Shown piece by piece: positions 9,804-55,032 of a stretch of DNA of 59,053 nt (its first letter is position 1; every line of letters begins with the position of its first letter). The notes below the pieces were generated by a model. That model was not told where the DNA came from. It worked only from the letters and a program-made list of their open reading frames with translations, and searched no databases. Source of the stretch: an uncultured Gammaproteobacteria bacterium (lineage in GTDB: Bacteria; Patescibacteriota; Microgenomatia; Daviesbacterales; UBA10151); the NCBI GenBank assembly GCA_964523905.1, contig CAZFYQ010000007.1, positions 10,135 to 69,187 of the forward strand, in the 5' to 3' direction. The position numbers were made by a program, and so were the translations under genes.

Positions 9804-10718
9804 ATGAAAGGCGTAAGGCTTCAGGCAACAGTTTACAGTTTAATATTTTTTTTTCTACTGCCTGTGGCCTGCGGCCTGTGGCCTGTTTCGGCACATCTAG
9901 TTGGCCAGCCACCTTTTTTTAAGGTTAACGGGCTCTATTCTCAGCTTTACCCAGTCCCTGTTACTTCTTTAAATAACTTTGATCTGCCTCAAGACAGCGC
10001 ACCGGATAATTATTTGGTTAATGTGCCGATTAGCTTTGAGTTTGATGAGGCCCGTTTACCTGCTCCCAAAGATATTATTGAAAAAACTAAATTTGACTGG
10101 GATTTTACAGATGGCAGCCATGGTGAAGGTTTAAAACAAACCCACACTTTCACTAAAATCGGCTCATACATTATTAAAATTTATGCGGATGACGGCACTA
10201 CTCCTAAACCACAGCTTTTGGAATCAGTCTTGGTTAATGTGTTACCGGATAAAAATTATCATTTGCCGCAGGCTAAAATTTTGATAAATGGCTTGTCTGG
10301 TAAAGATCCCTTAACTGATGTTTTGCAGTTTAGTTTTAATCAACCGCTTCAAATGGACGGCACAAAAAGCACTAGTTCTTCTGGAATTGCAGAATATTTC
10401 TGGGATTTGGGTGATCAAAAATCAGCCTTGGGTGCTACCCAAACTCATTTGGAACCAAAAGATCTGTCTCAAGCCTTCATAGTACTGCGTGTTAAAGATA
10501 AAAACGGTTTAATTGCCGATCAGTTTGTGGAAGTCCAAAATGGTTTAAACGAACAAAATTCCAAACAAACTCCCTCTACTATTTCCCCCACTCCAGTCCC
10601 TTTGCCTAAGAAATCAAATCAACTACCACTAACTTTAGCTGCAATTGTTGGATTAATAATAGTTTTGTTTATGGCTCGACATTGGCTTCGGGGCCGTTAT
10701 CACGGTAAGCGTCAATAA
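9804..10718 (+). CDS. secreted PKD-domain protein with C-terminal membrane anchor
   Basis: Signal peptide; PKD signature FDWDFTDGSHGEG...HTF...GSYIIKIYADDG; a second, degenerate YFWDLGD repeat; a C-terminal TM helix and basic tail. Confidence 0.7.
   Translation: MKGVRLQATVYSLIFFFLLPVACGLWPVSAHLVGQPPFFKVNGLYSQLYPVPVTSLNNFDLPQDSAPDNYLVNVPISFEFDEARLPAPKDIIEKTKFDWDFTDGSHGEGLKQTHTFTKIGSYIIKIYADDGTTPKPQLLESVLVNVLPDKNYHLPQAKILINGLSGKDPLTDVLQFSFNQPLQMDGTKSTSSSGIAEYFWDLGDQKSALGATQTHLEPKDLSQAFIVLRVKDKNGLIADQFVEVQNGLNEQNSKQTPSTISPTPVPLPKKSNQLPLTLAAIVGLIIVLFMARHWLRGRYHGKRQ
9858..9885. repeat. tandem heptamer tract (NGGCCTG x4) in the PKD-protein signal peptide
   Basis: CTGCCTG TGGCCTG CGGCCTG TGGCCTG, translated as LPVACGLWPV. 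Confidence 0.75.
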
Positions 10719-10726
10719 AAATTTAA
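10667..10726. repeat. direct repeat copy A: relic of a DUF3105-gene 3' end
   Basis: About 83% identical to 12034-12094. The antisense strand still reads IDAYRDNGPEANVEP-TAA, against IDAYRDNGPEQTVEP-TAA in the intact gene. The sense strand forms the C-terminal tail of the PKD protein. Confidence 0.8.
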
Positions 10727-10730
10727 GATA

Positions 10731-10757
10731 CAGCTGCCCACGTTACATGGGCAACTG
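10731..10757 (-). terminator. hairpin downstream of the 120-aa ORF (possible terminator)
   Basis: CAGcTGCCCA...TGGGCAaCTG stem. On the minus strand it is followed, after 8 nt, by TTTTT. Confidence 0.35.
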
Positions 10758-10773
10758 CGCAAGACCTGCATTC

Positions 10774-11136
10774 CTAAACAGCCGACAGTACTCTTTCTGC
10801 CAAAACTGGATCATGAACCTGAGATATTTTAGTTCCTTTTAGTCTGCTTAACCAACCATGAATTTGATTTTCAGCTACCAAAACCGCATTTTGTTCTTGA
10901 TCTGTCCCTAAGACAGTTTGTACTTCAGTTCCACAAAACTGAGTTATTCCATCAACAATGTACAAAGCCTTAATCGGGTGCTTGTGCATTTCAATCTCCT
11001 CATCTAATTCCAAAGGCCCATGCACTGGTAATTGACCTTCAGATTTTAGCTGAGTGAATACTGCGTCTTGTTTCGCTGTTAATTTAAAAAACTGATAATT
11101 TGCTTCTCTTAATTCGCCTTCTTTCATGCTTAACAT
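10774..11136 (-). CDS. hypothetical protein (120 aa)
   Basis: Clean ORF with a GAGGGGGG Shine-Dalgarno upstream and a hairpin plus T-run downstream. No motif recognised. Confidence 0.5.
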   Translation of the reverse strand: MLSMKEGELREANYQFFKLTAKQDAVFTQLKSEGQLPVHGPLELDEEIEMHKHPIKALYIVDGITQFCGTEVQTVLGTDQEQNAVLVAENQIHGWLSRLKGTKISQVHDPVLAERVLSAV

Positions 11137-11259
11137 TCCCCCCCTCTTGTATTAAACAATCAAATATTACTACAGATTTTTTTTGCGTCAATTAAAGAAT
11201 ACTTTGTTAAAATAGTTTTAGCTTCAAATTAGCCAATTATAATTAATTTGTCGTAAATA

Positions 11260-11268
11260 TGATACAAT
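11260..11268 (+). promoter_or_regulatory. extended -10 promoter of the TrmB-family gene (leaderless spacing)
   Basis: TGaTACAAT, with the ATG at 11276 following a 7-nt gap and no Shine-Dalgarno. Confidence 0.45.
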
Positions 11269-11275
11269 AGTAAAA

Positions 11276-12034: not shown

Positions 12035-12094
12035 TTTATGGCTCGACAGTTTGTTCAGGGCCGTTATCGCGGTAAGCGTCAATGAAAGCTTTAA
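12034..12094. repeat. direct repeat copy B: the authentic 3' end of the DUF3105 gene
   Basis: See copy A. The two copies bracket 10727-12033. Confidence 0.8.
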
Positions 12095-12719
12095 TCTTAC
12101 CTGAATTAAAGCTTTCTAATTTTTCAATCCGGTCCCAAGCGGTTAAAGTCAGTGGCACATCCATTCCAACTCGCGGCATGGCAATTAATTTATGCGGGCC
12201 AAACTTTTGCAACACATCTTTGATTTGATTTTCCATGCTGCTACAACTTCCATCAGAGAAGGATTTTGGCATCTGCTTTAAAGTTGCCGAAGCACTACCA
12301 TCAGTCCCATCTGTCATGGCAGTCTGCGCATAAACTGTGCTTACTATCCCCTGTTGCCTGTAACCTGTAACCTTTCTCTCGCAGTCATACCAGATAATCA
12401 CATAACCATGCTCCTGGGAATGCACTAAGTTACCATCTGCCCTTGGTTCGCTGTAAAACCCCTTGGTAATCCAGGAGCTGTAGTGTGGACCAAAAGTGGG
12501 CGGATTAGAAGGATAATTTAGAGCTGTTCCATCAGGAACATGCATCCGACATTTATCCCCAACACTTTTAGTATCCACTTTGGAAAAATCAATGACTTTA
12601 TCACAATTATAGTTTATTTTTTCACCGGGTAAAGGTTTGGTTGATTCAATAAATAACCAGCCCAAAAGAGCAACCATTATTACGACAATCACTCCGATAA
12701 TCAACCATTTATTTTGCAT
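12036..12719 (-). CDS. DUF3105-family membrane-anchored protein
   Basis: N-terminal TM helix and an HSQEHGYVIIWY motif typical of DUF3105. Adjacent to a DsbA-like gene. Confidence 0.6.
   Translation of the reverse strand: MQNKWLIIGVIVVIMVALLGWLFIESTKPLPGEKINYNCDKVIDFSKVDTKSVGDKCRMHVPDGTALNYPSNPPTFGPHYSSWITKGFYSEPRADGNLVHSQEHGYVIIWYDCERKVTGYRQQGIVSTVYAQTAMTDGTDGSASATLKQMPKSFSDGSCSSMENQIKDVLQKFGPHKLIAMPRVGMDVPLTLTAWDRIEKLESFNSGKIKAFIDAYRDNGPEQTVEP
12350..12370. repeat. tandem heptamer tract (CCTGTTG family x3) in the DUF3105 gene
   Basis: CCTGTTG CCTGTAA CCTGTAA, translated on the minus strand as TGYRQQG. Confidence 0.75.
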
Positions 12720-12726
12720 GAGGAAT

Positions 12727-13503: not shown

Positions 13504-13517
13504 TGTTTTTCAGTCTA

Positions 13518-14102
13518 TCAATTAAATTGATTTTGCGCAACAGGTAAGCCTTTTTCCAGTAGAATTTCTACTGCCTTTATGGCTTGTTTTAACATGTGTT
13601 TAACCTGTGCATGTTCTGAATGTAAAAAAGGTTCTAAGACAAATTTTTCAGCAGAAATTGAGGCATGTTTATGCTCGCCGCTTTGGGTTTTTAAATTTCC
13701 AATACCTAACCTGACCCTGACAAACTGATCAGTACCCAAGGCCCCAATTATTGACTCTACTCCGTGATGACCAGCAGCTGCCCCACCTTGGCGCACTTTA
13801 ATCTTTCCTAAAGGCAAATCCAGTTCATCATGAATAATCACAATATCTTCTGGTGCCACTTTATAATAATCAGCCACCAGCTTTACTGCCATTCCGGAAT
13901 TATTCATATAGGTTTGGGGTTTAACTAGTAATAAATCTTTGGAAACTTTTGCAAATTGGGCTTTAAACTTTTTGCTGTCTTCCCAACTGTTGCCTGTTGC
14001 CTGTTGCCTGTCTGCTATCCTATCCACCAGCTCAAATCCCAAATTATGTCTGGTGCCAGCATATGATTCTTTTGGATTTCCTAAGCCAACAATTATTTTC
14101 AT
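13518..14102 (-). CDS. pth: peptidyl-tRNA hydrolase
   Basis: Motifs GLGNP, TRHNLGF, MNNSG and HDELDLP. Contains the in-frame heptamer tract DRQQATGNS. Confidence 0.9.
   Translation of the reverse strand: MKIIVGLGNPKESYAGTRHNLGFELVDRIADRQQATGNSWEDSKKFKAQFAKVSKDLLLVKPQTYMNNSGMAVKLVADYYKVAPEDIVIIHDELDLPLGKIKVRQGGAAAGHHGVESIIGALGTDQFVRVRLGIGNLKTQSGEHKHASISAEKFVLEPFLHSEHAQVKHMLKQAIKAVEILLEKGLPVAQNQFN
13987..14014. repeat. tandem heptamer tract (CTGTTGC x3 plus CTGTCTG) in pth
   Basis: Translated on the minus strand as DRQQATGNS. Confidence 0.85.
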
Positions 14103-16917: not shown

Positions 16918-18627
16918 TTACTTTTTGTATTGTTGATTATACATCTCAATAAGCTCTTTAACAGTGGTCGCATCCTCCGCTTTTTTGTCTTTATCCCGAA
17001 AACTAACCAGTCTAGGAAATCTTAAGGCATAACCGGCACTATGATTTGGGCTAACAGTGATTTCATCAGCTAACACCTCAATTACAATTTCCGGTGCAAT
17101 CCAAACAGAGGGAGTTAATGTGGAATTTACTCTGGCTGGTTTTTTATCAGTTTTAATTTTATCAGCGCGTTTGTGAATTTCTCTCCATTCTTCATCAGTT
17201 AAACCAGTACCAATTTTAGAAACAGTTACAAATTCATCTTTAGCTTTATCATAAACTCCTACCAAAAGAGCCCCGGCACCAAAAGCTGATCTTTTCCCGC
17301 GACCAAAAATATAACCTAAAATCACACAATCAATCGTGTCTTTAAGTTCTCCGGATGAATGACGTTTTAATTTAACCCAGTTAAAATTCCTGGCTCCAGC
17401 TTCATAGGGAGAATCTAACCTTTTAACTACCAGTCCCTCCAGCCCATCAGCAATATACTCATCCAACATGGTTTGTAATTTTTTGGGATCGTCTGTTACT
17501 TCCCCCAGCTCCGGAAACAAAGTTTCACCATCTTTAATAGTAGTTTTCAAGATTTTTAACCGCTCAGTTAAGGGTAAATCAATTAAGGATTTGCCGTCTT
17601 TATATAAAATATCAAAACAAAAGGCTTTCAAAGGAATTTTTTTAGCTAGCTCATCAATGCCATATTTTCTACGTCTTTGAGTGGTTTCCTGAAATGGTAA
17701 AAATTCCCCACTTTCCGGGTTAAATCCAATGGATTCTGAATCTAAAATCGCGGTTTTAGCATGAATTTGTTTTAAAGCTCCTGCTACTACTTCCGGAAAC
17801 ATTGGCGTAGTTTCTTCTAAGTTTCTGGAAAATAGCCTCACTTTGTTTCCATCTTTGTGAATTTGTACCCTAAACCCATCCAATTTTCTTTGAGCATTAA
17901 CTTCCCCCATTTTCTCAATAACTTTTTCCGGATTTGGTAGTCTTTCTGCCAGCTGGGAACGGATGGGCCGTCCCACCACCACGGATAATTTCTCAACAGC
18001 TTTTAAACCACCAGCCCACAGTGTTTCTCCAATAAGTCCAAGATCTGAGACCCGGTTATATGCTCCTTCCAAAAGTTTTCTCTTAGATTTGTCACCCAGT
18101 TTTAACTTGGCAAAAGCATCCAAAATAGTGGGATCTCCAATTCCTAAACGCGAAGCTCCAAGTGGAACCCTAACCAAATGCTTGGCCGAAACCCCATCCA
18201 TTTTATCCAGCAGACCAGAGAGTAAAACAATTTTCTTTTCTACAGTCCCATCCCCATTCGTTTTAGCAATTTCTGTTAGGATCTCAAAAACTTGTTTTAT
18301 TCTTAAATCATTAATCTTTAATCTTAAATCTTTGGCATATTTTTCCGCTACCACTCCCAAATCTCCCACCTTCCCAAATTCTTTCAACACTTCTTCCCGA
18401 TCCACTTTATATGCCCGGGCAATTGCCTGAGCTACCAGCTTTTCACTCATCCCCATCTCTATAGCTTCATAAAAAGGCGCCACCCTGCCTTGCAAAAGAT
18501 ATGAAACCATCCCCACTTCTTCTTTGGAAACATCTTTAAAAAGCTCAGACAAAATATCTATCAAAGAAAGTCTGGAAGAGGTCCCTTCCAGCTTTTCAAA
18601 ATACTCAGCTAGCTTACTGAATGTCAT
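16918..18627 (-). CDS. lig: ATP-dependent DNA ligase (archaeal/eukaryotic Lig1-type)
   Basis: 569 aa with the adenylation motif KLDGFR and DNA-binding, adenylation and OB domains. Contains an AT-rich heptamer tract (DLRLKINDLRIK). Confidence 0.85.
   Translation of the reverse strand: MTFSKLAEYFEKLEGTSSRLSLIDILSELFKDVSKEEVGMVSYLLQGRVAPFYEAIEMGMSEKLVAQAIARAYKVDREEVLKEFGKVGDLGVVAEKYAKDLRLKINDLRIKQVFEILTEIAKTNGDGTVEKKIVLLSGLLDKMDGVSAKHLVRVPLGASRLGIGDPTILDAFAKLKLGDKSKRKLLEGAYNRVSDLGLIGETLWAGGLKAVEKLSVVVGRPIRSQLAERLPNPEKVIEKMGEVNAQRKLDGFRVQIHKDGNKVRLFSRNLEETTPMFPEVVAGALKQIHAKTAILDSESIGFNPESGEFLPFQETTQRRRKYGIDELAKKIPLKAFCFDILYKDGKSLIDLPLTERLKILKTTIKDGETLFPELGEVTDDPKKLQTMLDEYIADGLEGLVVKRLDSPYEAGARNFNWVKLKRHSSGELKDTIDCVILGYIFGRGKRSAFGAGALLVGVYDKAKDEFVTVSKIGTGLTDEEWREIHKRADKIKTDKKPARVNSTLTPSVWIAPEIVIEVLADEITVSPNHSAGYALRFPRLVSFRDKDKKAEDATTVKELIEMYNQQYKK
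18301..18335. repeat. AT-rich heptamer tract (TCTTAAA family x5) in the DNA ligase gene
   Basis: TCTTAAA TCATTAA TCTTTAA TCTTAAA TCTTTGG, translated as KDLRLKINDLRIK. Confidence 0.75.
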
Positions 18628-20558: not shown

Positions 20559-23500
20559 TTAGGTCTTCAAGTACTCTTGCCAGGACTTAATTTCTAAATC
20601 ATCCAGCTTTTTGGTAACCAAAGCTGTGGCTAAAAGCTCTGCTGCCTGCAAATTAGTAATCAAAGGCACTCCCAAATCAATACAATTTCTTCTAATAATA
20701 AATCCGTCAGTTTGCGCGGTTGTCCGACCCGGCTCACTAATATTAATCGCTAAATCAATCTCTTTTTTAATCAATAAATCCAAAACCGAAGGGCTTTTGG
20801 CCTCTGAGATCTTGTAAACCCGGGTGTTTTTAATGCCCTGTTTTAGTAAGAAAACCGAGGTTTGCTCTGTGGCATAGATCTTGAATCCTTTTGCGCTTAA
20901 GTTTTTGGCACTGCTTAGAAAATCCAGTTTATTTTTCTCTCCTCCCACTGACAAAAAGATGGATTTTTCCGGCAACTTAAATCCAACTGATAGCAGCGCT
21001 TTAAGATATGCTTCTGGTAAATCATCCCCAAAACAAGCCACTTCCCCTGTTGAAGACATTTCCACTCGCAGTCTGGGGTCAGCTCCTTTAATTCGATTAA
21101 AAGAAAACTGCGGAGCTTTAACTGCCACATAATCTAAGTCTAAAGTCTTGTTCTCAATAACAGGGGTTTTGCCTAAAATTACTTCAGTGGCAATCTCCAC
21201 AAAATTATTGCCAGTCACTTTGGAAACAAAAGGAAATGACCGGGAAGCCCGTAAATTAAGTTCAATTACTAAAATTTTATTATCTTTTGCTATAAACTGG
21301 ATGTTAAACGGACCAGTGATATTTAATTCTTTTAAGATTTTTCTGGTGGCGGACTTTAGTTGTCTGACTGTTTCTAAATACAAACGTTGTGGCGGCAATA
21401 CCATGGTGGCATCTCCGGAGTGAACCCCGGCATTTTCAATATGCTCAGAAATAGCATAAATCAAAAGCTTTCCATTTTGACCAACCCCATCTATTTCTAT
21501 TTCTTTAGCACCTTCAATAAACTTAGAAATCACCACTGGATGCTCAGCCGATACCTTGGTGGCTTGTTTTAAGAATTTTTTTAGATCCAGTGAGGAAAAA
21601 GCCACGTTCATCGCTGACCCAGATAAAACATACGATGGTCTGATTAAAACCGGATAACCAATCTTTTTGGCAAATTTAACTGCTTCATCAATTGTTTTTA
21701 AATTCATCCAGGCCGGCTGTTCAATTCCTAGCTTATCTAAAATTCCGGAGAATTTATGCCGATCTTCTGCTTGATCAATTGATACTGGAGAAGTTCCCAA
21801 GATTTTTAATCCCGCTTTGAAGCACTGTAGTGCTAAATTATTTGGTACCTGTCCTCCGAATCCTAAGACTAGGCTACCGCCCTCAATATCATAAATATCC
21901 GAGACTCGTTCAAAAGTTAACTCATCAAAATAAAGTTTATCAGCACTGTCATAATCCGTAGAAACTGTCTCTGGATTACAATTAATCATGATTGTCTCCA
22001 AACCGTTTTGCTTTAAAGTGTAAGCTGCAGTTACCGAACACCAGTCAAACTCTACCGAAGACCCAATCCGGTACGGCCCTGATCCCAGTACTATTGCCTT
22101 ATCATTTGTTTCTTGGTGGTTGTTTCTTGTTTCTTCACTCTCTTCTCCATGATATGTCAGATATAAATAATTAGTTTTAGCCGGATATTCTGCAGCCAAA
22201 GTATCAATGTGTTTTACTTTCGGTACTATGCCACTTTTTTTCCTGAAGTTTCTAACTTCTTGTTCGGTTTTTTTCAAAGCCTTAGCGATTAACTTATCCG
22301 AAAACCCCAGTTTCTTAGCTTCTTTGATATTTTCTACCTGTAAACTGTTAACTGTACCCTGTAACCTTTTCTCAAACTCCACCATCTGCTTAATCTGGTG
22401 CAAAAACCAAGGATCAATACCGGTAGCCTGATAAATACTGTCAACTGACTCACCTTCTGCAAACCTTTGAGAGATAATAAAAATTCTCTCAGTAGAAGGA
22501 GTCAGTTTGGTTTCATCAAGGTTACTGGCCAACAATCCATCCTGCCCTATTTCCAAACTTCTGATCGCTTTTTGTAATGCCTCGGGAAAACTTCTGCCAA
22601 TCGACATTACCTCTCCTACTGACTTCATTTCTGAGCCGATACTATCTTTAACATTGGCAAATTTCTGCAGATCCCAGCGCGGTATTTTAACTACCAGATA
22701 ATCCAAACTAGGTTCAAAAAAAGCAGAAGTAGACAGTGTCACCGAATTTTTCAGTTCTGGCAAATCGTAACCTAAACCAATCTTGGCGGCGATATAGGCC
22801 AATGGATATCCGGTAGCTTTGGAGGCTAAGGCAGATGATCTGGAAAGCCGGGCGTTCACTTCAATCACCCGGTAATCATTATTTTCCGGGTTTAAGGCAT
22901 ATTGAATATTACATTCTCCCACTATCCCTAAATGCTCAATTACTTGCAAAGATAATTTGCGTAAAAAATGATACTGGTAGTTATTTAAAGTTTGAGAAGG
23001 AGCCACCACAATACTCTCACCAGTATGCACACCTAAAGGATCTAAGTTTTCCATATTACAAACCGTAATTTTATTACCAAGCCCGTCTCTGACTATTTCA
23101 TATTCAATTTCTTTCCAGTGTTTTAAGTATTCTTCCACTGCCACTTGCGGAGCATGTCTTAAGGCATTCTCCAAAACCCTTTCCAGCTCTTTACTATCTT
23201 CCACCACTGAAGATCCCAATCCTCCTAAACTAAAACCAGACCGCACCAGTAACGGAAATCCGAGTCTTTGACCAATGGTTAATCCTTCTTTGACTGACCT
23301 GGCAAATCCGCCTTTGGGAACTTTAACATTAATTTCTGCCAGAGTCTTGGCAAACAGCTCCCGGTCTTCAGTAATTTCAATTGACTTAACCGGTGTTCCT
23401 AAAACTGTTAAATGATATTTTTTAAGCACTCCGCTTTTATGCAGTGCCAAACCACAATTTAAAGCTGTTTGGCCACCAAAAGACAACATTAAACCATCTG

Positions 23501-23732: not shown

Positions 23733-24778
23733 TTTATTGACTCCAGAAATTCATCAAACAAAAACCCTGCGTCCATTGGTCCAGGGGCTGCTTCCGGATG
23801 AAATTGCACTGCTAAAAAAGGCTTGGTTTTATGCCTGATTCCCTCATTAGTACCATCATTTAAATTAACAAACCATTCCTGCCAGTCTTTACTTAAAGAT
23901 TTCATATCCACGGCAAAGCCATGATTTTGAGAAGTAATAATGGCCCGACCAGTAGACTGATTAATCACCGGCTGATTTTGTCCTCGGTGGCCAAATTTTA
24001 GCTTGTAGGTATCTCCTCCTGCAGCCAAGGCTAAGATTTGACTGCCTAAACAAATTCCTAAAGTTGGAATGCCTTTGTTTAAAACCCCACGGACGTTTTC
24101 GATGGTTTGTTTAGCTTGTTTAGGATCACCTGGTCCATTTGAAATAAATACTCCGTCAAACTTGAAACTAGCAGTTAAAGGATCAAAGTCCCAAGGCACT
24201 CTGGTTACCTTTACTCCTCTTTTAACCAAACTTCTAACAATATTTTCTTTAGCTCCGCAATCAATCAAAATAATATTTTTCTTGCCCTCTCCAAAAACTT
24301 CTACTTTATTTGTGCTTACATTTGCTAGAACATTTTCAGAATTTGGATCATAAATTTGATTTGAGATTTGAGATTTGAGATTTGAGATTTTTCCTAGCAT
24401 AACTCCATGTTCTCTTAATTTTCTGGTTAGTTGTCTGGTATCAATTCCCTGCACAGCTGGTATACCCTCATCTTTTAACCATTGACCCAAAGTGCGTTCA
24501 GATTCAAAATGAGATGGATTATCAATATAATTTTGCACAATTAAACCTTTAACCTGAATTTTTTTTGATTCCCAAAACTCTTTAGAAGGAACTCCGTAAT
24601 TACCCACCAAAGGATAGGTTAAAACAAGAATCTGGCCATAATATGATGGATCAGTTAGAGATTCCGGATAACCAACTAAACCGGTATTAAAAACTACCTC
24701 TCCTGAGGTGCTACCCTCTGCTCCAAAACTTTCTCCTAAAAAAACTGTCCCATCGGACAGAGTTAATTTACCTTGCAT
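23729..24778 (-). CDS. carA: carbamoyl-phosphate synthase small (glutaminase) subunit
   Basis: Class I GATase with GICLGSQ (Cys) and FHPE (His). Contains the GATTTGA heptamer tract (NLKSQISNQ). Confidence 0.95.
   Translation of the reverse strand: MQGKLTLSDGTVFLGESFGAEGSTSGEVVFNTGLVGYPESLTDPSYYGQILVLTYPLVGNYGVPSKEFWESKKIQVKGLIVQNYIDNPSHFESERTLGQWLKDEGIPAVQGIDTRQLTRKLREHGVMLGKISNLKSQISNQIYDPNSENVLANVSTNKVEVFGEGKKNIILIDCGAKENIVRSLVKRGVKVTRVPWDFDPLTASFKFDGVFISNGPGDPKQAKQTIENVRGVLNKGIPTLGICLGSQILALAAGGDTYKLKFGHRGQNQPVINQSTGRAIITSQNHGFAVDMKSLSKDWQEWFVNLNDGTNEGIRHKTKPFLAVQFHPEAAPGPMDAGFLFDEFLESIK
24358..24390. repeat. heptamer tract (GATTTGA x4.5) in carA
   Basis: Perfect GATTTGA repeats, translated as NLKSQISNQ. 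Confidence 0.85.
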
Positions 24779-35453: not shown

Positions 35454-36356
35454 ATGCTAGTGCTTAAAAAACTCATCTTTGGCATCTTTTTTCTGATTAC
35501 TTTTGCACTCTTAGTTTTCAAAATCAGTCCATTTTTACAGTCATATAATTCGGTGTTATCTTTATCTTTAAATAATTATCTGCAATATTTAATGCTGACC
35601 GCTTTAATTAGTTTATCCTCTTTTTTCTTTGTACTATTTGTAGCTTTTTCATTTAACTGGAAAGTAATTGTGCCAGTGGTACTGCTAGGCTCAGCTTTGG
35701 CCATTATTTTACAAGATCCGGCTCTTAGTTTAACCTTATTTGTCACTGCTTCTGTTAGTTTCCTACTAAATCTACTGGGACTGGAAAATACCTTAAAAAG
35801 TTATTTAACTTTTCAGCCAACGGCTCTGCTTGGCCCTGCTATTAAAGGCCTTTCAGGACTATTAATTATTAGCTTTTCTTTAGTGTTTTTCTTATCAGCC
35901 AACCGGGCGGTGGCTGCAAACGGTTTTCAAATCCCGGATAGTTTTCTGGATCCGATTTTAGGCCTGCTACCATCTCAACCAACTGAGTCTGATACTGGAA
36001 GTAATTTACCTTCACTTAACTCCACTCAAATTGCCCTGTTAAAACAAAATCCTGGCTTACTTAAACAATACGGTTTTGATCCCAGTATTTTAGATAATAT
36101 TAAACCTTCTTCTTCAGTGACTAATAATTTGGCCAAACAAACTGCCAAAGCTGCTTTAAATACCCTGATAAAACCTTACCAGGCATTTGTACCGGCTATA
36201 CTGGCCATCATCTTTTTTGGATCCTTGGAAACCTTTAGCTGGCTGATTAGTTTACTGGTTAATCCTCTACTTTGGTTAACCTTTTTAATCCTGGAAAAAA
36301 CCGGTTTTGTTACATTTACAGAAGAGCAAAGGATAGTTCGCAAAATGGTAATTTAG
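35454..36356 (+). CDS. integral membrane protein
   Basis: Start moved to MLVLKK (35454) to avoid overlap with the divergent gene. Several TM helices. Confidence 0.5.
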   Translation: MLVLKKLIFGIFFLITFALLVFKISPFLQSYNSVLSLSLNNYLQYLMLTALISLSSFFFVLFVAFSFNWKVIVPVVLLGSALAIILQDPALSLTLFVTASVSFLLNLLGLENTLKSYLTFQPTALLGPAIKGLSGLLIISFSLVFFLSANRAVAANGFQIPDSFLDPILGLLPSQPTESDTGSNLPSLNSTQIALLKQNPGLLKQYGFDPSILDNIKPSSSVTNNLAKQTAKAALNTLIKPYQAFVPAILAIIFFGSLETFSWLISLLVNPLLWLTFLILEKTGFVTFTEEQRIVRKMVI

Positions 36357-38506
36357 ATTTTAAGAGGCTGCATTTCACCCCAGTTGGGACCAACTTTAAG
36401 ATCCACTACTACTGGTACATCCAGTTTTAAGGCCTGTTCCATTTTTTCCCTTACCATTTTAGCAACTTCTTTTACAGAATCTGCTTCACACTCAAATAAA
36501 AGCTCATCATGAATCTGCAGTATCAGGCGACAGGCTTCAGGCGACAGGCTGTAGTGATCTGTTGCCTGTTGCCTACTGCCTACTGCCTTGTCTATCTCAA
36601 CCATCGCTTTTTTAATCATGTCCGCCGCTGTCCCCTGCACCGGATGATTGATGGCAGCTCTTTCTCCAGCTGCTTTAATCATTCTATTGCCGGCTTGCAG
36701 TTCCGGGATATATCTTTTTCTGCCCCATAAAGTTTCAACATAACCTTTTTCATAGCCTTTGGCTAAGGTTTCCTGCATCCACTGGGAAATTTTAGGAAAC
36801 TCGGCAAAGTATTCCAAAATATATTGCTGGGCAATCTCATATGGCACTTTTAACTGACGAGACAAAGCATGCGGGCCTTGACCATAAAGTGTGGCAAAGT
36901 TCATGGTTTTGCCAACCATCCGCTGCCCTTTGTCCACTTTCTCAACCGGCACCTTAAAGATTTTCGCCGCAGTGGCACTATGAATATCCAATCCTTTATC
37001 AAAAGCTTCTTTTAATGCCTCATCCCCGGAAAAATGCGCCATAATCCGAAGCTCAATTTGAGAATAATCAGCTGCCAAAAGCACTTTTCCTTTGGGCACA
37101 ATAAAAGCTTGTCTGATTTTCCCGCCCACTTCTCCCACTGGGATATTTTGTAAATTAGGATTAGTAGAAGAAAGCCTGCCAGTGGCTGCTCCTTCGACAT
37201 TAAAAGTGGAATGAATCCGACCATCTTCCCCTACTGATTGTGGCAGCGCATCAATATAAGTAGACACCAGCTTAAACAGTTGCCGATATTCCAGAAGTAG
37301 TGGAATCATTGGATGAGCCGGGGCTAATTCTTTTAAAGTTTCTTCATCAGTTGATCTTCCGGTTTTAGTCTTTCGAAACACCGGCAGTTTTAATTCATCA
37401 AATAAAATTACCTGCAACTGCTTTGGGCTATTTAAATTAAATTCATGACCAACAGATGAATAGATTTCCTTTTCCAGAGTAGCTACTCTTTTTTTCAAGT
37501 CTTTGCCTAGTTTATCTAATAACTTTAAATCAACTAAAATGCCGTTTTTGGACATTTTTTCTAAGACCGGAGTAACTGCCTGATCCAAATCAGCAGTAAC
37601 ACCTGTTTCTTTTGGTTTAGGTGCCTCCTCTTTCATTTCATAACCGGGAATTCTGGCCAGTAAACTTTTAAATTCCAGTTCTTCAAAAAGTTTAATTACC
37701 TCATTTTTATCAAAATCATGCACCACACATTTGGTTAAATCCAGCTTGATGGGGGCTTCCAGATCTATGGTGGCCAACTGCTTACTCATTACTGCATCCT
37801 CTGCTCCAGCTGCCAACAAATTTTGCATTCTTTCCGGCAAGGTTTTTAAATTCTCCGGTTTATAAATCTCTTCAACAGTGCCAAACTGATGAATTAATTT
37901 AGTAGCAGACACATCCCCAATTCCCGATACTCCGGGAATATTATCTGAAGCATCCCCGGCTAAACCTTTGTAATCCCGCAGCTGATCAGGGGAAAACCCA
38001 TACCGCATCATAAACTCCTCTACCCCATATAACCCCACATCAGCCAAAGTTTTTTTCGGCATTAAAATCTTGACCCGGTCATTAATAAGCTGCATGATAT
38101 CCCGATCTCCAGTTAGAATAATAATTTCCAGTGCCGGTTCTTTCTCAGCCTGTCTGGTTAAAGTACCAATTAAATCATCAGCTTCATATCCTGATAAACT
38201 AAACTCCGGTAAATTAAAAGCCTTAGCCAGCTCATGAACTCTTTTGTATTGATTACTCAAAGCCTGGTCTGTCTCTGCTCTGGTGGCTTTATACTGAGTA
38301 TAGGCCTGATGGCGAAAAGTAGGTCCTTTTTCATCCCAGGTTAAAGCTAGATAATCCGGTTTTAAATCAGATAACGCTTTTAAAAGCATGGAGGAAAATC
38401 CATAAACGGCATTGACCAGTTCTCCCATGCCTGTGGTAAAAGGTGGTGTGGCATGATAGGCCCTATGAAGCAGCGCATTCCCATCAATTAATACCAATCT
38501 CTTCAT
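36353..38506 (-). CDS. polA: DNA polymerase I (5' nuclease + polymerase, no 3'-5' exonuclease domain)
   Basis: 717 aa. An N-terminal FEN-like domain is followed, after a ~20-aa linker, by family A polymerase motifs (DYSQIELR, RMVGKTMNFATLYG, QIHDELLFE). Confidence 0.9.
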   Translation of the reverse strand: MKRLVLIDGNALLHRAYHATPPFTTGMGELVNAVYGFSSMLLKALSDLKPDYLALTWDEKGPTFRHQAYTQYKATRAETDQALSNQYKRVHELAKAFNLPEFSLSGYEADDLIGTLTRQAEKEPALEIIILTGDRDIMQLINDRVKILMPKKTLADVGLYGVEEFMMRYGFSPDQLRDYKGLAGDASDNIPGVSGIGDVSATKLIHQFGTVEEIYKPENLKTLPERMQNLLAAGAEDAVMSKQLATIDLEAPIKLDLTKCVVHDFDKNEVIKLFEELEFKSLLARIPGYEMKEEAPKPKETGVTADLDQAVTPVLEKMSKNGILVDLKLLDKLGKDLKKRVATLEKEIYSSVGHEFNLNSPKQLQVILFDELKLPVFRKTKTGRSTDEETLKELAPAHPMIPLLLEYRQLFKLVSTYIDALPQSVGEDGRIHSTFNVEGAATGRLSSTNPNLQNIPVGEVGGKIRQAFIVPKGKVLLAADYSQIELRIMAHFSGDEALKEAFDKGLDIHSATAAKIFKVPVEKVDKGQRMVGKTMNFATLYGQGPHALSRQLKVPYEIAQQYILEYFAEFPKISQWMQETLAKGYEKGYVETLWGRKRYIPELQAGNRMIKAAGERAAINHPVQGTAADMIKKAMVEIDKAVGSRQQATDHYSLSPEACRLILQIHDELLFECEADSVKEVAKMVREKMEQALKLDVPVVVDLKVGPNWGEMQPLKI
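36524..36586. repeat. inverted pair of heptamer tracts (4 + 4 units) inside polA
   Basis: CAGGCGA CAGGCTT CAGGCGA CAGGCTG - TAGTGAT - CTGTTGC CTGTTGC CTACTGC CTACTGC, translated as GSRQQATDHYSLSPEACRL. Confidence 0.85.
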
Positions 38507-49854: not shown

Positions 49855-49857
49855 AAT

Positions 49858-50091: not shown

Positions 50092-50110
50092 AGAAGTTTA
50101 TTATACCATG

Positions 50111-50995: not shown

Positions 50996-51002
50996 AATTG
51001 TT

Positions 51003-51063: not shown

Positions 51064-52205
51064 AATTTCCTTTCGTATGCTAAATCTACTATTGTCTTTG
51101 CAGTTGCTGTCATCGGAGTTTCGCGACCAAAAATGTGAAAATTAAAGCCTTCTTTTTGGCCAATTAGTTTAAGCTCTTCAAAAGCTTTTTGATCATTTGG
51201 TCCACCGCGTCTTATGACAATTGGATAAGTTGGTTTTGGTTTAACCTCTCTTAAACCCTCTACTACTCCCATTAATGTTTCATAAATATCAGTAAAATTA
51301 GCAGTCCCTCCCACTATCCACAGCCCTTTTAAACCAGGTTTAGACAATAATACTTGAGTAAGTTTTTTTAATTTCTCCCTAGGTGGATTACCAGAGTGTT
51401 CAGTATAATTAGCCGGCTTTCCACCCAAAGCAATTAAAGCATCCATGTTTACTACGCTTCCCCCGCCTCCGGCAGCTAGTACTGCAATATCTCCATCTAA
51501 ATCCCAATATACAGAACCGGCGGTTCCACGGTGATCTCCTTGATCAATTTTTCTGGCCTCAATTTCCCTTTCAGTTGAAGCTCTACCAAACAAATTTCTT
51601 TCCGGAAATTTCATATCCCTTCGAAAATCCGCATCATCATCCAAAATCACCTTGCTATCCAAAGCAATCACCAGCCCATCTTTGGCAATTACCAGAGGAT
51701 TAATTTCTGCCAACTCACAGTCATATTTTAAAAATACTTCCCAAAGTTTATTGGCAGTATCAATTAAATTTGCAGGTAAATCTTGTTCAAAGGGCCCTTT
51801 ATTTATATCAACCGGGTAAGTTTTAGCGCCTTTTCCTTCAGCTCCGGTACCCCCTTCACCAAAAGTCATCACCGGGCCGCGAGCCTCTGTTGAGTAGGAA
51901 AAAGATAAATAATATTCCTGATCTTCTTTAGCAATTTCTTCTTCCACCAAAATCTTTTCTACTTTTTCGCCGTTAACTTCTTTTGCAAATAATTCTTTCG
52001 CACTGTTGCCTAATGCCTGTTGCCTGTCCACTCTTATTATTCCTCCTGCTTCTTTTCTTTTGCCAGATAAAACCTGAGCTTTTAAAACGACAGGAACTGT
52101 CGTCCCCGACTTGATCGGGGACCCAGATGTAATAAGTTGACTTTCTGGAATATTAATCCCACAATTTTTAAATAGCTGTTTCCCTTCAAATTCATAAAGT
52201 AACAT
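51054..52205 (-). CDS. ATP-grasp beta-type subunit of the ATP-citrate lyase/citryl-CoA synthetase branch
   Basis: AAGGGGSVV...ANYTEHSGNP, IVGGTANFTD, IVIRRGGPN and HIFGRETPMTA match my memory of the ACLY N-terminal half better than SucC. The stop codon lies inside a repeat arm. Confidence 0.75.
   Translation of the reverse strand: MLLYEFEGKQLFKNCGINIPESQLITSGSPIKSGTTVPVVLKAQVLSGKRKEAGGIIRVDRQQALGNSAKELFAKEVNGEKVEKILVEEEIAKEDQEYYLSFSYSTEARGPVMTFGEGGTGAEGKGAKTYPVDINKGPFEQDLPANLIDTANKLWEVFLKYDCELAEINPLVIAKDGLVIALDSKVILDDDADFRRDMKFPERNLFGRASTEREIEARKIDQGDHRGTAGSVYWDLDGDIAVLAAGGGGSVVNMDALIALGGKPANYTEHSGNPPREKLKKLTQVLLSKPGLKGLWIVGGTANFTDIYETLMGVVEGLREVKPKPTYPIVIRRGGPNDQKAFEELKLIGQKEGFNFHIFGRETPMTATAKTIVDLAYERKLSS
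52003..52030. repeat. heptamer tract (CTGTTGC CTAATGC CTGTTGC CTGTCCA) in the ACL-like beta subunit gene
   Basis: Translated as DRQQALGNS. Confidence 0.85.
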
Positions 52206-52246
52206 ATGCGCTGATTTTATCAGAGTTAACTAATGATTAAAACTAA

Positions 52247-53005: not shown

Positions 53006-53033
53006 TTTATATTATTACAGGATAAAATTCAAA

Positions 53034-53345
53034 TTAACTGGGGACAAATTTAATTTCTAAATGGGTATTTAAGGCCTTTGCTAGTTTTTGTAAAAAGGCA
53101 ATGGAAGGATTAGCTTTACCTGATTCCAACCGGGAAATAACTGATTGTTTAGTGCCAATTTTTTTGGCTAAAATACTTTGGGTTAATCCTTTATGTACTC
53201 TGGCATCAATCATTGCCCTAATAACCTCAAACTCCGGCTGTAAACGATCATATTCAGCCTTAAGTTTAGGATTTTTTAATGATTCATTGAAAAAATCATC
53301 AAAATCTCTGTGTTGTCTATCCTCGGGTTTAATTAATTTATTCAT
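53034..53345 (-). CDS. XRE-family HTH antitoxin (HigA-like)
   Basis: HTH segment LTQSILAKKIGTKQSVISRLESG. Lies downstream of a RelE/Gp49-like gene. Confidence 0.75.
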   Translation of the reverse strand: MNKLIKPEDRQHRDFDDFFNESLKNPKLKAEYDRLQPEFEVIRAMIDARVHKGLTQSILAKKIGTKQSVISRLESGKANPSIAFLQKLAKALNTHLEIKFVPS

Positions 53346-53381
53346 ATCAAGGATACCTTGTAATCTTCCTTTCAGTCAGAT

Positions 53382-53399
53382 TATAGCATATATGCTATA
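53382..53399. promoter_or_regulatory. 18-bp perfect palindrome overlapping a TGcTATAAT box between toxin and antitoxin genes
   Basis: TATAGCATA|TATGCTATA spans the toxin stop codon. On the minus strand it contains an extended -10 (TGCTATAAT) about 38 nt upstream of the antitoxin ATG. Confidence 0.5.
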
Positions 53400-53739
53400 T
53401 TATCTCTCTCATTCTGTCAACTGCCAGTTTTAATTCCCTACTTGGAGTTTTTTGAGTTTTCTTTTTAAATGCATGAAGCAAATAGTATTCGTTATTTTTA
53501 ATAGTATAGAAAATTCTAATAGAAACACTCCCTGAGATTCTTAGCTCATATAATTTATCCTGCAATTTTTTGATTAATGGAGGTTGTAAAAAAGGCCCAC
53601 CCTGCTTCAGAAGAGTTACTGCAGTAAGAATTTTAGCGTAGGTTTTTTCATCTTGAGCTTTAATAAACTCCTCGACTGGTAATTCACCGCGGGTAGTTTG
53701 AAAAGATTTAACTGTCCAGGTTCTTACTGGAGTATCCAT
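53395..53739 (-). CDS. RelE/ParE-superfamily toxin (phage Gp49/HigB-like)
   Basis: 114 aa with LYELRI...IRIFY...LLHAFKKK typical of Gp49-like toxins. Toxin-first gene order. Confidence 0.7.
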   Translation of the reverse strand: MDTPVRTWTVKSFQTTRGELPVEEFIKAQDEKTYAKILTAVTLLKQGGPFLQPPLIKKLQDKLYELRISGSVSIRIFYTIKNNEYYLLHAFKKKTQKTPSRELKLAVDRMREII

Positions 53740-53742
53740 TTA

Positions 53743-55032
53743 TTATTTAAGCTTGTCTCTAAACTGATCGTAGCTGGTTAAAGCCGGACTATGATCTGTA
53801 ACTTCCAGCTCCTGTTTGACCAGTACTTTTTTATTATCTTCCAGGTCATGATATAAAATTACTCCTGGGCCAACCATAGAATTAGCCCCAATCTTGGTCC
53901 CAGGCATGGTAGAAGCATTGACCCCCACTCTTGATCCTCTCCCGGCAATTAATCCTAGTTTATGACGACCGGTATCCAGCTTTTCTTCTCCCATACGGAT
54001 AGTATGATCATCCAAACGCAGATTAGCCAGTACTGCACCAGAACCCATGCCAAAATCTCCCTCAATTACTGAATCCCCAATGTAATTGGTATGAAACCAG
54101 GAGTTGGCTCCAATGTAGCTTCTGGTGATATCAGAGTTAAAACCGGTGACAGTTCCCTCTTCCAAATCAGATTCTCTAATCATGGTGTTATTTCCTACGA
54201 TCACATTTTTACCAATATATACCGGGCCTTTAATCACTGCCCCTTCAAACACTTTAACCCCCTCTTCTATTAGCACAGAACCTGTAATAATAGCGCTTTT
54301 AGCTATCATTGCTCCCGGGGAAATTTTATCCTCAATACCTTGTAATAAGTGCTCTAGGATATCTAAAATCTGCCAAGGGTATTTTAAAGGAATCCAAGTG
54401 CCTTCATATTTTACAAACTTTACTTCTACCCCATCTTGTAACATCTGATTTAGCGCCACCTCATAGACATCATCTTTATCCGACACTGCTTTTTCCAAAG
54501 CAACAATTAGCTTTTGACCATCTTTGAAGTAATCCACTACCAATTTTACTAAATCTGATGGCTCATTACCCTCTCCTGGTTTTTCTACTATTGCCTCTAC
54601 CCTGTTGCCTGTGGCCTCTTTAATATATCCTCCGGGGAAATAGCTGGATACTTTTAAGCCTGGAAAAACTATCTCTGCTCCGCCTTTGGCCACCTGAGAA
54701 TAAATAGACTCATCTACAATATCTTCGGCATTAACAATTAAGATTTCTCCGTTAATTAAATCTTTGGCAGATAAAATTGCACTAGCCATACCCTTAGCTT
54801 CTTCCTGAACAACAATAGTACCGGCTAAACCAAGCTCATTTAAGATTCCTTCAATTACAGTTTTATTCTCTACTCTGGAAACGATGATTACCTCCTCCGG
54901 GTTAATCGCTTGCTTAATTTTTTTAAGATTATGATACAAAAGCGGTTTTCCCAAAAAAGGAATTAAACACTTATCCGTTTGAATCGGCCACATTCTTTTA
55001 CCATGTCCTGCTGCGAGTACTATTAATTTCAT
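53743..55032 (-). CDS. sugar-phosphate nucleotidyltransferase with left-handed beta-helix domain (GlmU/GCD1-like)
   Basis: N-terminal LAAGHGKRMWP motif and C-terminal hexapeptide repeats. Confidence 0.75.
   Translation of the reverse strand: MKLIVLAAGHGKRMWPIQTDKCLIPFLGKPLLYHNLKKIKQAINPEEVIIVSRVENKTVIEGILNELGLAGTIVVQEEAKGMASAILSAKDLINGEILIVNAEDIVDESIYSQVAKGGAEIVFPGLKVSSYFPGGYIKEATGNRVEAIVEKPGEGNEPSDLVKLVVDYFKDGQKLIVALEKAVSDKDDVYEVALNQMLQDGVEVKFVKYEGTWIPLKYPWQILDILEHLLQGIEDKISPGAMIAKSAIITGSVLIEEGVKVFEGAVIKGPVYIGKNVIVGNNTMIRESDLEEGTVTGFNSDITRSYIGANSWFHTNYIGDSVIEGDFGMGSGAVLANLRLDDHTIRMGEEKLDTGRHKLGLIAGRGSRVGVNASTMPGTKIGANSMVGPGVILYHDLEDNKKVLVKQELEVTDHSPALTSYDQFRDKLK
54601..54616. repeat. short heptamer tract (CCTGTTG CCTGTGG) in the nucleotidyltransferase gene
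   Basis: Translated as EATGNR. Confidence 0.6.

Follow-up and report, generated by a model that had tools for sequence, protein, structure and literature searches.

A heptamer family in a housekeeping region

The DNA considered here is a stretch of 59,053 nucleotides (nt), called the window throughout (assembly GCA_964523905.1, contig CAZFYQ010000007.1, forward-strand positions 10,135 to 69,187), whose Pth homologs are those of Candidatus Daviesbacteria, in the Microgenomates group of the candidate phyla radiation (CPR). It is gene-dense and consists of housekeeping DNA, with the mevalonate pathway, carAB, pyrB, recF, ftsH, an aminoacyl-tRNA synthetase and an ATP-dependent DNA ligase. Our subject is a family of short tandem arrays of the heptamer CCTGTTG/ACAGGCA that lie within open reading frames (ORFs) of this region. 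Among the long simple repeats of bacteria, tandem heptamers, on record since 1990, are the most frequent; to our knowledge, neither their origin nor the reason for a 7-nt period is understood. That such non-triplet repeats should be written into essential genes is surprising.

Tracts were detected with Tandem Repeats Finder and with our own periodicity scans. Allowing at most one mismatch, CCTGTTGCCTG matches the window 16 times at ten loci, against a mean of 0.78 in dinucleotide shuffles, where the maximum is three and none of 100 shuffles reaches 16. This excess bears out an earlier note on the same DNA, which had placed arrays of two to four heptamers at these positions; the tract at 54601 is shorter, with about two units. 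Each tract of the family lies inside a long ORF and leaves its reading uninterrupted, as the note had claimed and as our check of ORFs and translations confirms, and the peptides that it had listed for the host proteins (DRQQATGNS, DRQQGTGNS, DRQQALGNS, GIRQQALG, SRQQAT, YRQQG and ATGNR) are correct on translation. By Pfam, the eight hosts are a PKD-domain protein, a DUF3105 protein, Pth, MutM, a GT4 glycosyltransferase, PolA, an ATP-grasp/ACL-like subunit and an NTP-transferase. The note was thus right to see a DNA-level phenomenon that spans unrelated, mostly housekeeping genes and whose unit is free of stop codons on both strands. It had recognised a single inverted copy, at 36524, which is real, and had overlooked a further one at 9822-9842. 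Its remark that the reading frame is always the same is accurate as a fact and loses nearly all its significance on inspection, because an array of three heptamers visits each of the three codon phases and any in-frame reading is a cyclic permutation of QQATGNR; of more weight is the module that three of the genes have almost in common, described below.

The tracts of this family are as follows.

9822..9842, plus strand: 5' arm of the PKD-gene hairpin, CAGGCAACAGTTTACAGTTTA, at the start of the gene at 9804-10718
9860..9886, plus strand: 3' arm of the PKD-gene hairpin, (GCCTGTG/GCCTGCG)x3.9, read LPVACGLWPV, within the signal peptide's hydrophobic core
12350..12373, minus strand: solo tract in the DUF3105 gene, sense AGGTTACAGGTTACAGGCAACAGG, read KVTGYRQQG
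13987..14011, minus strand: solo tract in pth, (ACAGGCA)x3.6, read DRQQATGNS, at the end of helix 1 and in the next loop
30307..30331, minus strand: solo tract in mutM, ACAGGCA ACAGGGT ACAGGCA ACAG, read DRQQGTGNS, in a lineage-specific loop
34037..34066, minus strand: GT4 tract (site A), AACAGGCATTAGGC x2.1, perfect at period 14, read TGIRQQALGK
36523..36550, minus strand: 3' arm (gene sense) of the PolA hairpin, AGCCTGTCGCCTGA x2, read SLSPEACRL
36559..36588, minus strand: 5' arm of the PolA hairpin, AGGCAGT AGGCAGT AGGCAAC AGGCAAC AG, read KAVGSRQQAT, in the hypervariable loop before motif C
52003..52027, minus strand: solo tract in the ATP-grasp/ACL-like gene, ACAGGCA ACAGGCA TTAGGCA ACAG, read DRQQALGNS
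54601..54616, minus strand: short tract (about two units) in the NTP-transferase/hexapeptide gene, read ATGNR; the ortholog at locus L130 has no tract

An assembly artefact is ruled out: the Pth tract of an independently assembled Logan contig (L001) is identical to that of the window, and such tracts are equally present in relatives assembled by NCBI, JGI and ENA sources.

A period of seven in the window and its relatives

Beyond this one family, the window contains 20 segments that are periodic at 7 or 14 nt, where 2.3 would be expected, and all 20 are inside ORFs. Nine to ten of them belong to the ACAGGCA/CCTGTTG family, the others are built of AT-rich units, and together they make up about 2.5% of the window DNA. 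Masking the tracts removes all excess identity at lag 7 from the window, and a pervasive weak 7-nt periodicity was rejected on this account.

For comparison, we collected 50 Pth-centred loci from species-representative genomes and 78 PolA-centred loci from metagenomes (numbered L below), in all 1.63 Mb of Microgenomates DNA. The relatives were read as stretches of at most 20 kb, and the genome of the window as these 59 kb of a 69-kb contig; sampling around Pth and PolA over-represents a few hotspots, and the ORFs of the relatives were called mechanically. The numbers of tracts by period are given here together with those after triplet shuffling; periods 14 and 21 are harmonics of 7.

Period 7: 146 tracts in 1.63 Mb; triplet-shuffled, 3
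Period 14: 104 tracts in 1.63 Mb; triplet-shuffled, 1
Period 21: 49 tracts in 1.63 Mb; triplet-shuffled, 1
Each other period from 4 to 22: at most 14 tracts in 1.63 Mb; triplet-shuffled, at most 3

Most of the period-7 tracts (126 of 146, or 86%) are in ORFs; they comprise more than 60 distinct units, have no common terminal sequence and are A-rich on the sense strand (41% A, 25% T). Since the excess at period 7 runs across the relatives with more than 60 units, CCTGTTG is not a universal motif or a special word; CCTGTTG/ACAGGCA is the amplified unit of its own genome. Other genomes likewise disperse a single unit above expectation (for example L003, L004, L025, L048 and L101). Within the sampled loci, heptamer tracts occur in most Daviesbacteria and in some Levyibacteria, and none were found in two loci labelled Gottesmanbacteria, in the sampled loci of other phyla or in most Microgenomates loci of higher G+C content (>0.45). 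A small repertoire of favoured units was considered and rejected: the effect is modest and partly due to orthology (0.94% of between-locus pairs are identical, against 0.14-0.22% in the null).

The commonest unit among the Daviesbacteria is TCAGTCG/AGTCGTC, with the peptide LSVVSRQ, found at L012 19282-19311, at L057 21797-21819 and in the PolA hotspot of L058, L070, L104 and L111. It is one mismatch away from TCAGTTA (peptide LSVISYQ), which is how the TAACTGA repeat described elsewhere (PMC4679880) reads on its other strand; this likeness could be chance or could reflect a cross-phylum unit.

The periodic segments of the window that belong to other unit families include the following.

2703..2718, plus strand: short tract in the HMG-CoA-synthase-like gene, (ATGCCAA)x2.3, kept at the orthologous site in L011 and L012
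3142..3172, plus strand: tract in the thiolase-like gene, GATTAATGATTMAA x2.2
5458..5490, plus strand: tract in a GHMP-kinase gene, (ACAAATY)-type, the sense strand being the A-rich strand
18306..18332, minus strand: tract in the ATP-dependent DNA ligase gene, within the linker, (AAGATTT)-type, read KDLRLKINDL, length unchanged
22106..22135, minus strand: tract in carB, (AAGAAAC)-type
24358..24390, minus strand: tract in carA, perfect (AAATCTC)x4.7, read KISNLKSQISN
33881..33913, minus strand: GT4 tract (site B), (AAATCTT)-type, read ENLKSLILNHK

The AAATCTC unit of carA also occurs in L092 at a non-orthologous site, in an aminoacyl-tRNA synthetase gene, and the conserved (ATGCCAA)x2.3 at 2703-2718 may be ordinary conserved coding sequence.

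Host-protein sites: overwritten or inserted

One and the same protein site carries different heptamers in different species, and this holds for Pth, MutM, PolA, GT4, the ACL-like subunit, DNA ligase and aminoacyl-tRNA synthetase. Around residues 27-40 of Pth, the window has (ACAGGCA)n, L017 has (AAGTGCA)n, L005, L006 and L012 have (AAGGGnn)n, and L002 and L004 have (AGTAnnA)n, with a length that is nearly constant at +2 amino acids (aa) relative to the Daviesbacteria baseline KKLNLVD. Site A of GT4 is occupied by ACAGGCA in L101, GTACAGG in L007, AAAGTGC in L052, AGTCGTC in L124 and AAGATTT in L016 and L104, and the DUF3105 site by the ACAGGCA family in L009 (ATGYRQQG) and by different heptamers in L021. 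Many orthologs of the host genes, for example of Pth, ligase and MutM, are without any tract.

Several of these tracts have taken the place of existing sequence. In four genomes, (CAAAGTT)x5 stands in the DNA ligase gene in base-for-base exchange for the 33 nt that encode HKRADKIKVDH. At Pth residues ~71-80, DYYKIAPED becomes TTNYQLPTTN, that is (ACTACCA)x4, without change of length, and the genomes form a graded series from weakly periodic to perfect in which a conserved Tyr and a conserved Pro are retained. The DRQQALGNS of the ACL-like subunit shares its columns with EKQVEIKEK and EIQDLRFKI of orthologs, at unchanged length relative to most of them, and the tracts in the MutM linker and in aminoacyl-tRNA synthetase replace sequence in the same length-neutral manner. 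Other sites do change in length. The MutM loop shows indels of +3, +6, +8, +9 and +10 aa among relatives, the window protein having +6 aa relative to its nearest relative, inside a lineage-specific stretch of 15 aa that solved MutM structures do not have; the PolA loop that precedes motif C varies among orthologs between 4 and 34 aa, carries heptamer tracts in 33 of 60 and is 10 aa longer in the window than in Klenow; and GT4 has two hotspots of this kind, of which site B is insertion-like. The view that the peptides are extra residues in loops is therefore only partly right: it agrees with MutM and PolA and not with the ACL-like subunit, which is unchanged in length relative to most orthologs, and Pth, at +2 aa relative to the Daviesbacteria baseline, aligns without a gap to M. 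tuberculosis Pth. Many patches are thus overwritten, not inserted, and others lie in indel hotspots.

Might the encoded peptide itself be what is selected, as a flexible hydrophilic linker of the QQATGN kind, or might the repeats serve phase variation? The peptides are indeed hydrophilic and placed in loops (residues 31-39 in the AlphaFold model of Pth form the end of helix 1 and a loop, with a pLDDT of ~67), and repeats in ORFs whose unit is not a multiple of three are a classic substrate for phase-variable contingency. We nevertheless hold either idea to be highly improbable. The identity of the tracts is at the nucleotide level and includes third codon positions, their period is 7 nt rather than 3 or 21, and they also occur between genes. 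Moreover, the hosts are housekeeping or essential genes (Pth, PolA, ligase, carAB, aminoacyl-tRNA synthetase) rather than surface or restriction-modification genes, copy numbers are low (2-5), and no differences in length were seen between near-identical loci.

Two of the host enzymes have features of their own. PolA (36353-38506, 717 aa) has a 5'-nuclease domain that a short, hypervariable linker connects to the polymerase domain, a 3'-5' exonuclease domain not being recognisable, and the ligase (16918-18627) is ATP-dependent, not NAD-dependent. A polymerase of this type together with such a ligase may bear on slippage-prone replication or repair.

Orientation of the tracts

In the window, CCTGTTG stands on the plus strand at nine loci and on the minus strand at two, and both minus copies are hairpin arms. 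Read relative to the genes, ACAGG is sense at eight loci and CCTGT at two, namely in the LPVACGLWPV core and in the modified 3' arm of PolA that encodes SLSPEACRL. Between 12 and 57 kb, the minus strand carries nearly all genes and the GC skew goes with gene strand, so that polarity with respect to genes and polarity with respect to the chromosome are inseparable within the window. The claim that polarity follows the chromosome rather than the gene is not supported: it is confounded with gene strand, and the sole plus-strand host gene holds both orientations in the form of a hairpin. As a separate observation, cumulative GC skew falls monotonically from 8000 to 59053, with C exceeding G on the plus strand at a skew of about -0.13 to -0.19; extreme strand asymmetry of the whole chromosome is on record for some Microgenomates (PMC7143001).

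When loci are oriented by gene, CAGGnnACAGG is found in sense at a ratio of ~40:5, and all five exceptions are 3' arms of hairpins. Well-supported ORFs on the minority strand contain seven tracts of all families, of which five are A-rich and two T-rich in sense; three of the seven represent one orthologous site, and this small sample is suggestive of an orientation that follows the gene. A tract density that seemed ~4-fold lower in minority-strand genes was traced to resampling of the PolA, Pth, ligase and GT4 hotspots and discarded as an artefact. Overall, the evidence indirectly favours a bias that is tied to the gene rather than to the chromosome.

These data speak to the proposal, among the options of the earlier note, that CCTGTTG is a polar chromosomal signal (Chi, KOPS/FtsK or DNA uptake) oriented by replichore. 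It could draw on the nine plus against two minus loci within 45 kb, on a unit that is stop-free on both strands, and on a monotonic fall of cumulative GC skew as in strand-asymmetric Microgenomates (PMC7143001). We think that there is very little chance of its being correct. The bias is fully confounded with gene strand, the only plus-strand host gene contains both orientations, and CCTGTTG words amount to ten on the plus strand of the window, nearly all inside tracts, and four on the minus strand, where ~2-3 per strand are estimated from base composition, so that single words outside tracts are at background. Known polar signals are single words and not two to five tandem copies, the relatives hold other heptamers, more than 60 in number, at the same protein sites, and both the ~40:5 ratio in sense and the minority-strand ORFs (five A-rich against two) point to the gene. 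No RecBCD/AddAB, FtsK gamma domain or competence receptor was seen among the 46 window ORFs in a general scan that was not aimed at them.

Conservation and concerted change

Where a unit is shared between species, its DNA is strikingly stable. The Pth tract of L131 is identical to that of the window at 29 of 30 nt while the proteins are 73% identical, and the ACL-like tract of L130 at 25 of 26 nt while the proteins are 76% identical; in both, there are no synonymous changes in the tract and the flanks are ~80% identical. The ten host proteins that were looked up are all singletons in 90% clusters. Units within an array may also change together: in the ligase array of L012, AAAATTC and AAAGTTC alternate perfectly at period 14, where relatives are uniform, and several tracts of the window are likewise perfect at period 14 and imperfect at period 7. 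Conservation and concerted change, as read from these alignments, indicate either ongoing homogenisation of arrays or a constraint at the DNA level.

Hairpins and complementary arms

Among the relatives, an inverted partner lies no more than 90 nt away for 40 of the 146 tracts; a composition-matched control gives 9 of 146. The arms of these hairpins are themselves heptamer arrays, with about one mismatch per unit, and an exact complement of an arm would often introduce a stop codon. In the window, hairpins are limited to two loci, one in the PKD gene (9815-9890, -26.9 kcal/mol, z -3.5, equalled in 0 of 200 shuffles) and one in polA (36518-36595, -31.3 kcal/mol, z -4.3); the tracts of the other six host genes are solo and unstructured. 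The PolA of L112 has an AGGCA-family hairpin like that of the window, L060 and L100 have hairpins built of other units at an N-terminal position comparable to that in the PKD gene, and hairpins with heptamer arms are also found between genes of the relatives, at gene ends. In Pth of several genomes, two variable sites that flank a conserved coding segment are complementary to each other. Arms from one genome pair with energies of -26 to -32 kcal/mol, compared with means of -12 to -19 across genomes, and the units differ by genome. By this measure the arms co-vary.

Mismatches between arms give no sign of selection for an mRNA hairpin: on the sense strand, A.C mismatches number 29 and G.U mismatches 14. 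As G.U is not in excess, selection for an mRNA hairpin was rejected. Rfam has no match at the tracts of the window.

The tracts could still be functional nucleic-acid elements, acting as terminator, stabiliser or processing structures in mRNA or ssDNA, as arrays for a protein that covers ~7 nt per monomer (Csp/OB-fold-like), or as targets of a complementary small RNA by which the host genes are co-regulated. Tract DNA conserved at 96-97% between species whose proteins are ~75% identical, without synonymous change, would fit such a role, as would the co-variation of arms within genomes, the presence of hairpins at matching N-terminal or loop positions from differing units, the terminator-like hairpins between genes, and the z scores of the two hairpins in the window (-3.5 and -4.3). 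In addition, CspB is cited in PMC4679880 as occupying heptamer repeats with one protein per unit. We consider this account rather improbable all the same. Units vary by site and by genome, which does not fit a sequence-specific reader; six of the eight host genes in the window have solo, unstructured tracts; A.C exceeds G.U among sense mismatches; location follows what the protein tolerates, with no consistent position in the mRNA; and many orthologs are free of tracts.

A proposed model of copying in a 7-nt register

We favour, at about even chances, a reading in which the tracts of the window are a local family of lineage-wide heptamer patches that arise from templated copying of DNA in a 7-nt register and are filtered by coding selection. 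The patterns themselves are observations; what we infer from them is that misalignment or template switching produces the tracts, how units disperse, and that the tracts have no cellular function. We envision that a strand, nascent or invading, slips out of alignment for a short time, by one or two units, and returns to its place after copying a few bases, or alternatively that it switches to a nearby complementary tract before copying and realigning. In loops that tolerate indels, such events would add tandem heptamers, and elsewhere they would overwrite weakly constrained stretches while keeping the length. Copying of this kind would lead to concerted evolution of the units within an array and would maintain the complementarity of nearby arms, and ectopic conversion or template switching between tracts could spread unit families to more genomic sites. 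Purifying selection would then retain patches that are in frame, free of stops and tolerable as peptides. ACAGGCA in sense encodes QQATGNR, which is hydrophilic and presumably tolerated in loops, whereas CCTGTTG in sense encodes PVACCLL, which is hydrophobic and might be tolerated only in a signal peptide or in a modified 3' hairpin arm; such a peptide filter would therefore account for the orientation bias. Of the earlier options, a slippage or recombination hotspot comes closest to this reading, in its version as 7-nt-register templating; no length polymorphism of plus or minus 7 nt was seen in near-identical genome pairs. A slippage proposal exists in the literature: Mrazek et al. 2007, as summarised in PMC4679880, linked the excess of heptamers to polymerase slippage with a 7-nt contact, and we count this toward a 7-nt register.

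Several results weigh against this reading. MutM, the ACL-like subunit and Pth of the window share a near-identical module of 27-29 nt, (GTG)GACAGGCAACAGGnnnnAGGCAACAGT, with the same ends. Pairs of identical units make up 4.4% within a locus and 1.0% between loci, compared with 0.1-0.2% in the null; units are ~4 times more often identical within than between loci. From the shared module and the excess of unit identity it follows that some copying between sites must occur, which purely local seeding leaves unexplained. The content of the PolA hotspot is wholly different between strains that are 95.7% identical in aligned PolA-region DNA, a turnover that looks closer to cassette replacement than to gradual conversion. 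The strong nucleotide conservation of tracts could equally be read as function. The near-identical pairs L075/L108, L099/L110, L053/L055, L071/L128 and L107/L112 (92-100% identical) are few in number and show no differences of plus or minus 7 or 14 nt; the gaps between them fall at a run of GA dinucleotides, at cassettes of unrelated sequence and in the PolA hotspot. Finally, the model gives no reason for a register of 7 rather than 6 or 8.

The pair L075/L108, whose contigs are 99.2% identical, is of interest for another difference. Unrelated cassettes of 340-425 nt (14388-14731 in L075, 14388-14812 in L108) lie at the end of a minus-strand gene, and the GT4 region at ~17.77-17.94 kb is a mosaic with a highly divergent patch. 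Cassette and patch suggest localised recombination that has no relation to heptamers.

A rival reading is that the tracts are very small mobile or selfish elements, akin to Rickettsia palindromic elements (RPE), small dispersed repeats (SDR) or REP/REPIN, that an enzyme copies into permissive protein loops and that decay thereafter. The (GTG)GACAGGCAACAGGnnnnAGGCAACAGT modules with their shared ends, the presence of one unit family at ten sites in 59 kb together with dispersed units in other genomes, the complete turnover of the PolA hotspot (4-34 aa) at 95.7% DNA identity and the hairpin architecture of many tracts are all in its favour, and the hotspots also harbour a discrete mini-element, CATTGCGAG-N6-24-GAAGCAATC, one copy of which is inside a gene of the window. 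On balance we regard mobile elements as an unlikely explanation, as many replacements are length-neutral, keep conserved residues and pass through graded intermediates, the MutM indels of +3 to +10 aa imply no fixed element length, the more than 60 units have no common ends, and the Pth arms flank a conserved coding segment and hence do not represent an insertion in one piece. Nor did a scan of 46 window ORFs, which did not extend to ~14 small ones, turn up a transposase, RAYT or reverse transcriptase. The related option of a sequence-specific mini-insertion process, also raised before, is partly supported: the indel hotspots of MutM, PolA and GT4 and the near-identical module in three genes agree with it, and the many length-neutral tracts do not.

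The CATTGCGAG-N6-24-GAAGCAATC element deserves a description in its own right. In the window it lies at 5556-5590, within the GHMP-kinase gene at 5297-6286 on the plus strand, and it has 30 matches in 20 related loci, with conserved ends, a variable and often self-complementary centre, and in-frame translation. In other frames it reads VIASEAKQS or SSLRGA, which fill the PolA hotspot of L052, L057, L074, L075 and L088. It looks like an SDR/REP-like mini-element inside genes.

A bolder possibility, which we rate as improbable, is that the Daviesbacteria, and possibly all heptamer-rich bacteria, have a dedicated or idiosyncratic overwriting activity with a fixed 7-nt register. Candidates are a polymerase, a primase, a recombinase or a reverse-transcriptase step, perhaps with genome-specific oligonucleotides as templates. 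If it existed, such an activity would write heptamers and their complements without change of length, keep dispersed copies identical and continually re-invent protein loops; it would amount to a new mechanism of mutation or gene conversion and would account for the cyanobacterial STRR, unexplained since 1990.

Whatever the mechanism, tracts in conserved genes allow ortholog alignments to serve as exact anchors for overwriting, concerted change, co-variation of arms and tract conservation. The mechanism of heptamer repeats thereby becomes testable by comparative genomics and by biochemistry on the exonuclease-less PolA and the ATP-dependent ligase. The tracts also represent a non-standard source of protein-loop diversity in ultra-small genomes, and for the annotation and alignment of CPR proteins they mean that 'inserts' such as QQATGNS, KVQSAKC, TTNYQLP and SVVSRQS are repeat DNA and not conserved motifs.

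Neighbouring features

The mevalonate operon at 856-7251 looks complete, with HMG-CoA reductase, two GHMP kinases, diphosphomevalonate decarboxylase, and two paired genes, HMG-CoA synthase-like and thiolase-like, accompanied by one for a small OB-fold protein; a polyprenyl synthetase gene adjoins. At the other end, Rfam detects a group I intron at 56766-56952 (68.8 bits), within 56746-56998 on the plus strand. Its flanks can be read by eye as tRNA halves (GCGGGGA... and ...GGTTCGACTCCTACCCCCGCA), for which ARAGORN makes no tRNA call, and directly after the intron region there is a free-standing ORF for a GIY-YIG nuclease (57001-57252, Pfam E 2e-20). The HIP1 octamer GCGATCGC occurs once in the window; given this single site and the Daviesbacteria homologs, a cyanobacterial origin of the DNA was rejected.

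Comparison with known repeats

The STRR heptanucleotide repeats of heterocystous cyanobacteria were reportedly described by Mazel et al. in 1990 and are said to number ~100 per genome in Calothrix. That work is listed as a reference in PMC4692102. Like STRR, the tracts are few-copy tandem heptanucleotides in genome-specific, dispersed families (here ten sites of one family in 59 kb), and both the excess of tandem heptamers and the dispersal of families are found. Unlike STRR, which are largely intergenic and cyanobacterial, they occur in a CPR host, with all 20 segments of the window in ORFs, so that neither the intergenic location nor the cyanobacterial restriction is seen; many are also length-neutral replacements, and a quarter are in complementary pairs.

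The statement that no mechanism or function has been described must be revised to the extent that heptanucleotide tandem repeats form a known, if unexplained, class (PMC4692102, PMC4679880), which takes in STRR, the heptamer excess in long simple sequence repeats (SSRs), the TAACTGA repeats (PMC4679880) and the GGGNATC repeats (PMC4692102). The long-SSR excess of Mrazek, Guo and Shah (2007), as summarised in PMC4679880 and PMC4692102, resembles the present case in that period 7 stands above all other unit lengths, and differs in that it concerns mainly large genomes of non-pathogens and is mostly outside genes, whereas the tracts described here belong to a small genome and run in frame within its genes. 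The same summaries (PMC4679880, PMC4692102) would lead one to expect only units that are a multiple of three in coding DNA. The TAACTGA repeats of marine Beggiatoaceae, cyanobacteria and Bacteroidetes (PMC4679880) and the G-quadruplex-forming GGGNATC repeats of Xanthomonas and Nostoc (PMC4692102) share with our tracts that they are dispersed tandem heptamers whose orientation is limited by stops. Each of the two has a single dominant unit and is mostly intergenic, near start or stop codons, and under-represented in coding DNA (PMC4679880, PMC4692102), whereas the Daviesbacteria tracts have many units, are in coding DNA and contain no G-tracts.

Elements that interrupt genes offer a second comparison. 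RPE, from the work of Ogata et al. in 2000, are said to be insertions of 100-150 bp with a family consensus. Such elements are mentioned in PMC1779305 and PMC10969869. Both RPE and our tracts are repeated, palindromic, in-frame DNA in unrelated housekeeping genes that is translated, as additional surface peptide, at permissive sites and present in some orthologs only. The tracts, however, are 16-35 nt long (~65 nt as hairpins), consist of tandem heptamers, have no common consensus and are often length-neutral, and no palindrome of 100-150 bp with a consensus was found. Relative to orthologs, the tracts look like in-frame insertions in MutM, PolA and site B of GT4 and leave the length unchanged in ligase, the ACL-like subunit, Pth 71-80 and the MutM linker. 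The SDR of Nostoc, reportedly introduced by Elhai et al. in 2008, are described as 21-27 nt long, in some cases hairpins, often located in heptamer arrays and recently mobile. They resemble the tracts in their shortness, their hairpin structure and their association with tandem heptamer arrays; they differ in being discrete, non-repetitive inserts within heptamer arrays, whereas here we deal with the arrays themselves, and the CATTGCGAG...GAAGCAATC element is a closer SDR analogue than the tracts are.

With Chi, KOPS and uptake sequences, the tracts have in common a short oligomer that is over-represented on one strand of the window. Those signals are genome-wide single words with replichore skew and a dedicated reader, whereas the tracts are arrays and hairpins of species-specific units; CCTGTTG as a single word is not over-represented outside the arrays of the window (10 on the plus strand, almost all in tracts, and 4 on the minus strand). 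Our full-text literature search returned no paper that ties heptamer repeats to CPR/Patescibacteria or that describes an intragenic, hairpin-paired form. What is novel relative to the class is thus a form of heptamer repeat that is intragenic, in frame, often length-neutral, frequently paired as a hairpin, conserved at orthologous protein sites, and resident in CPR bacteria.

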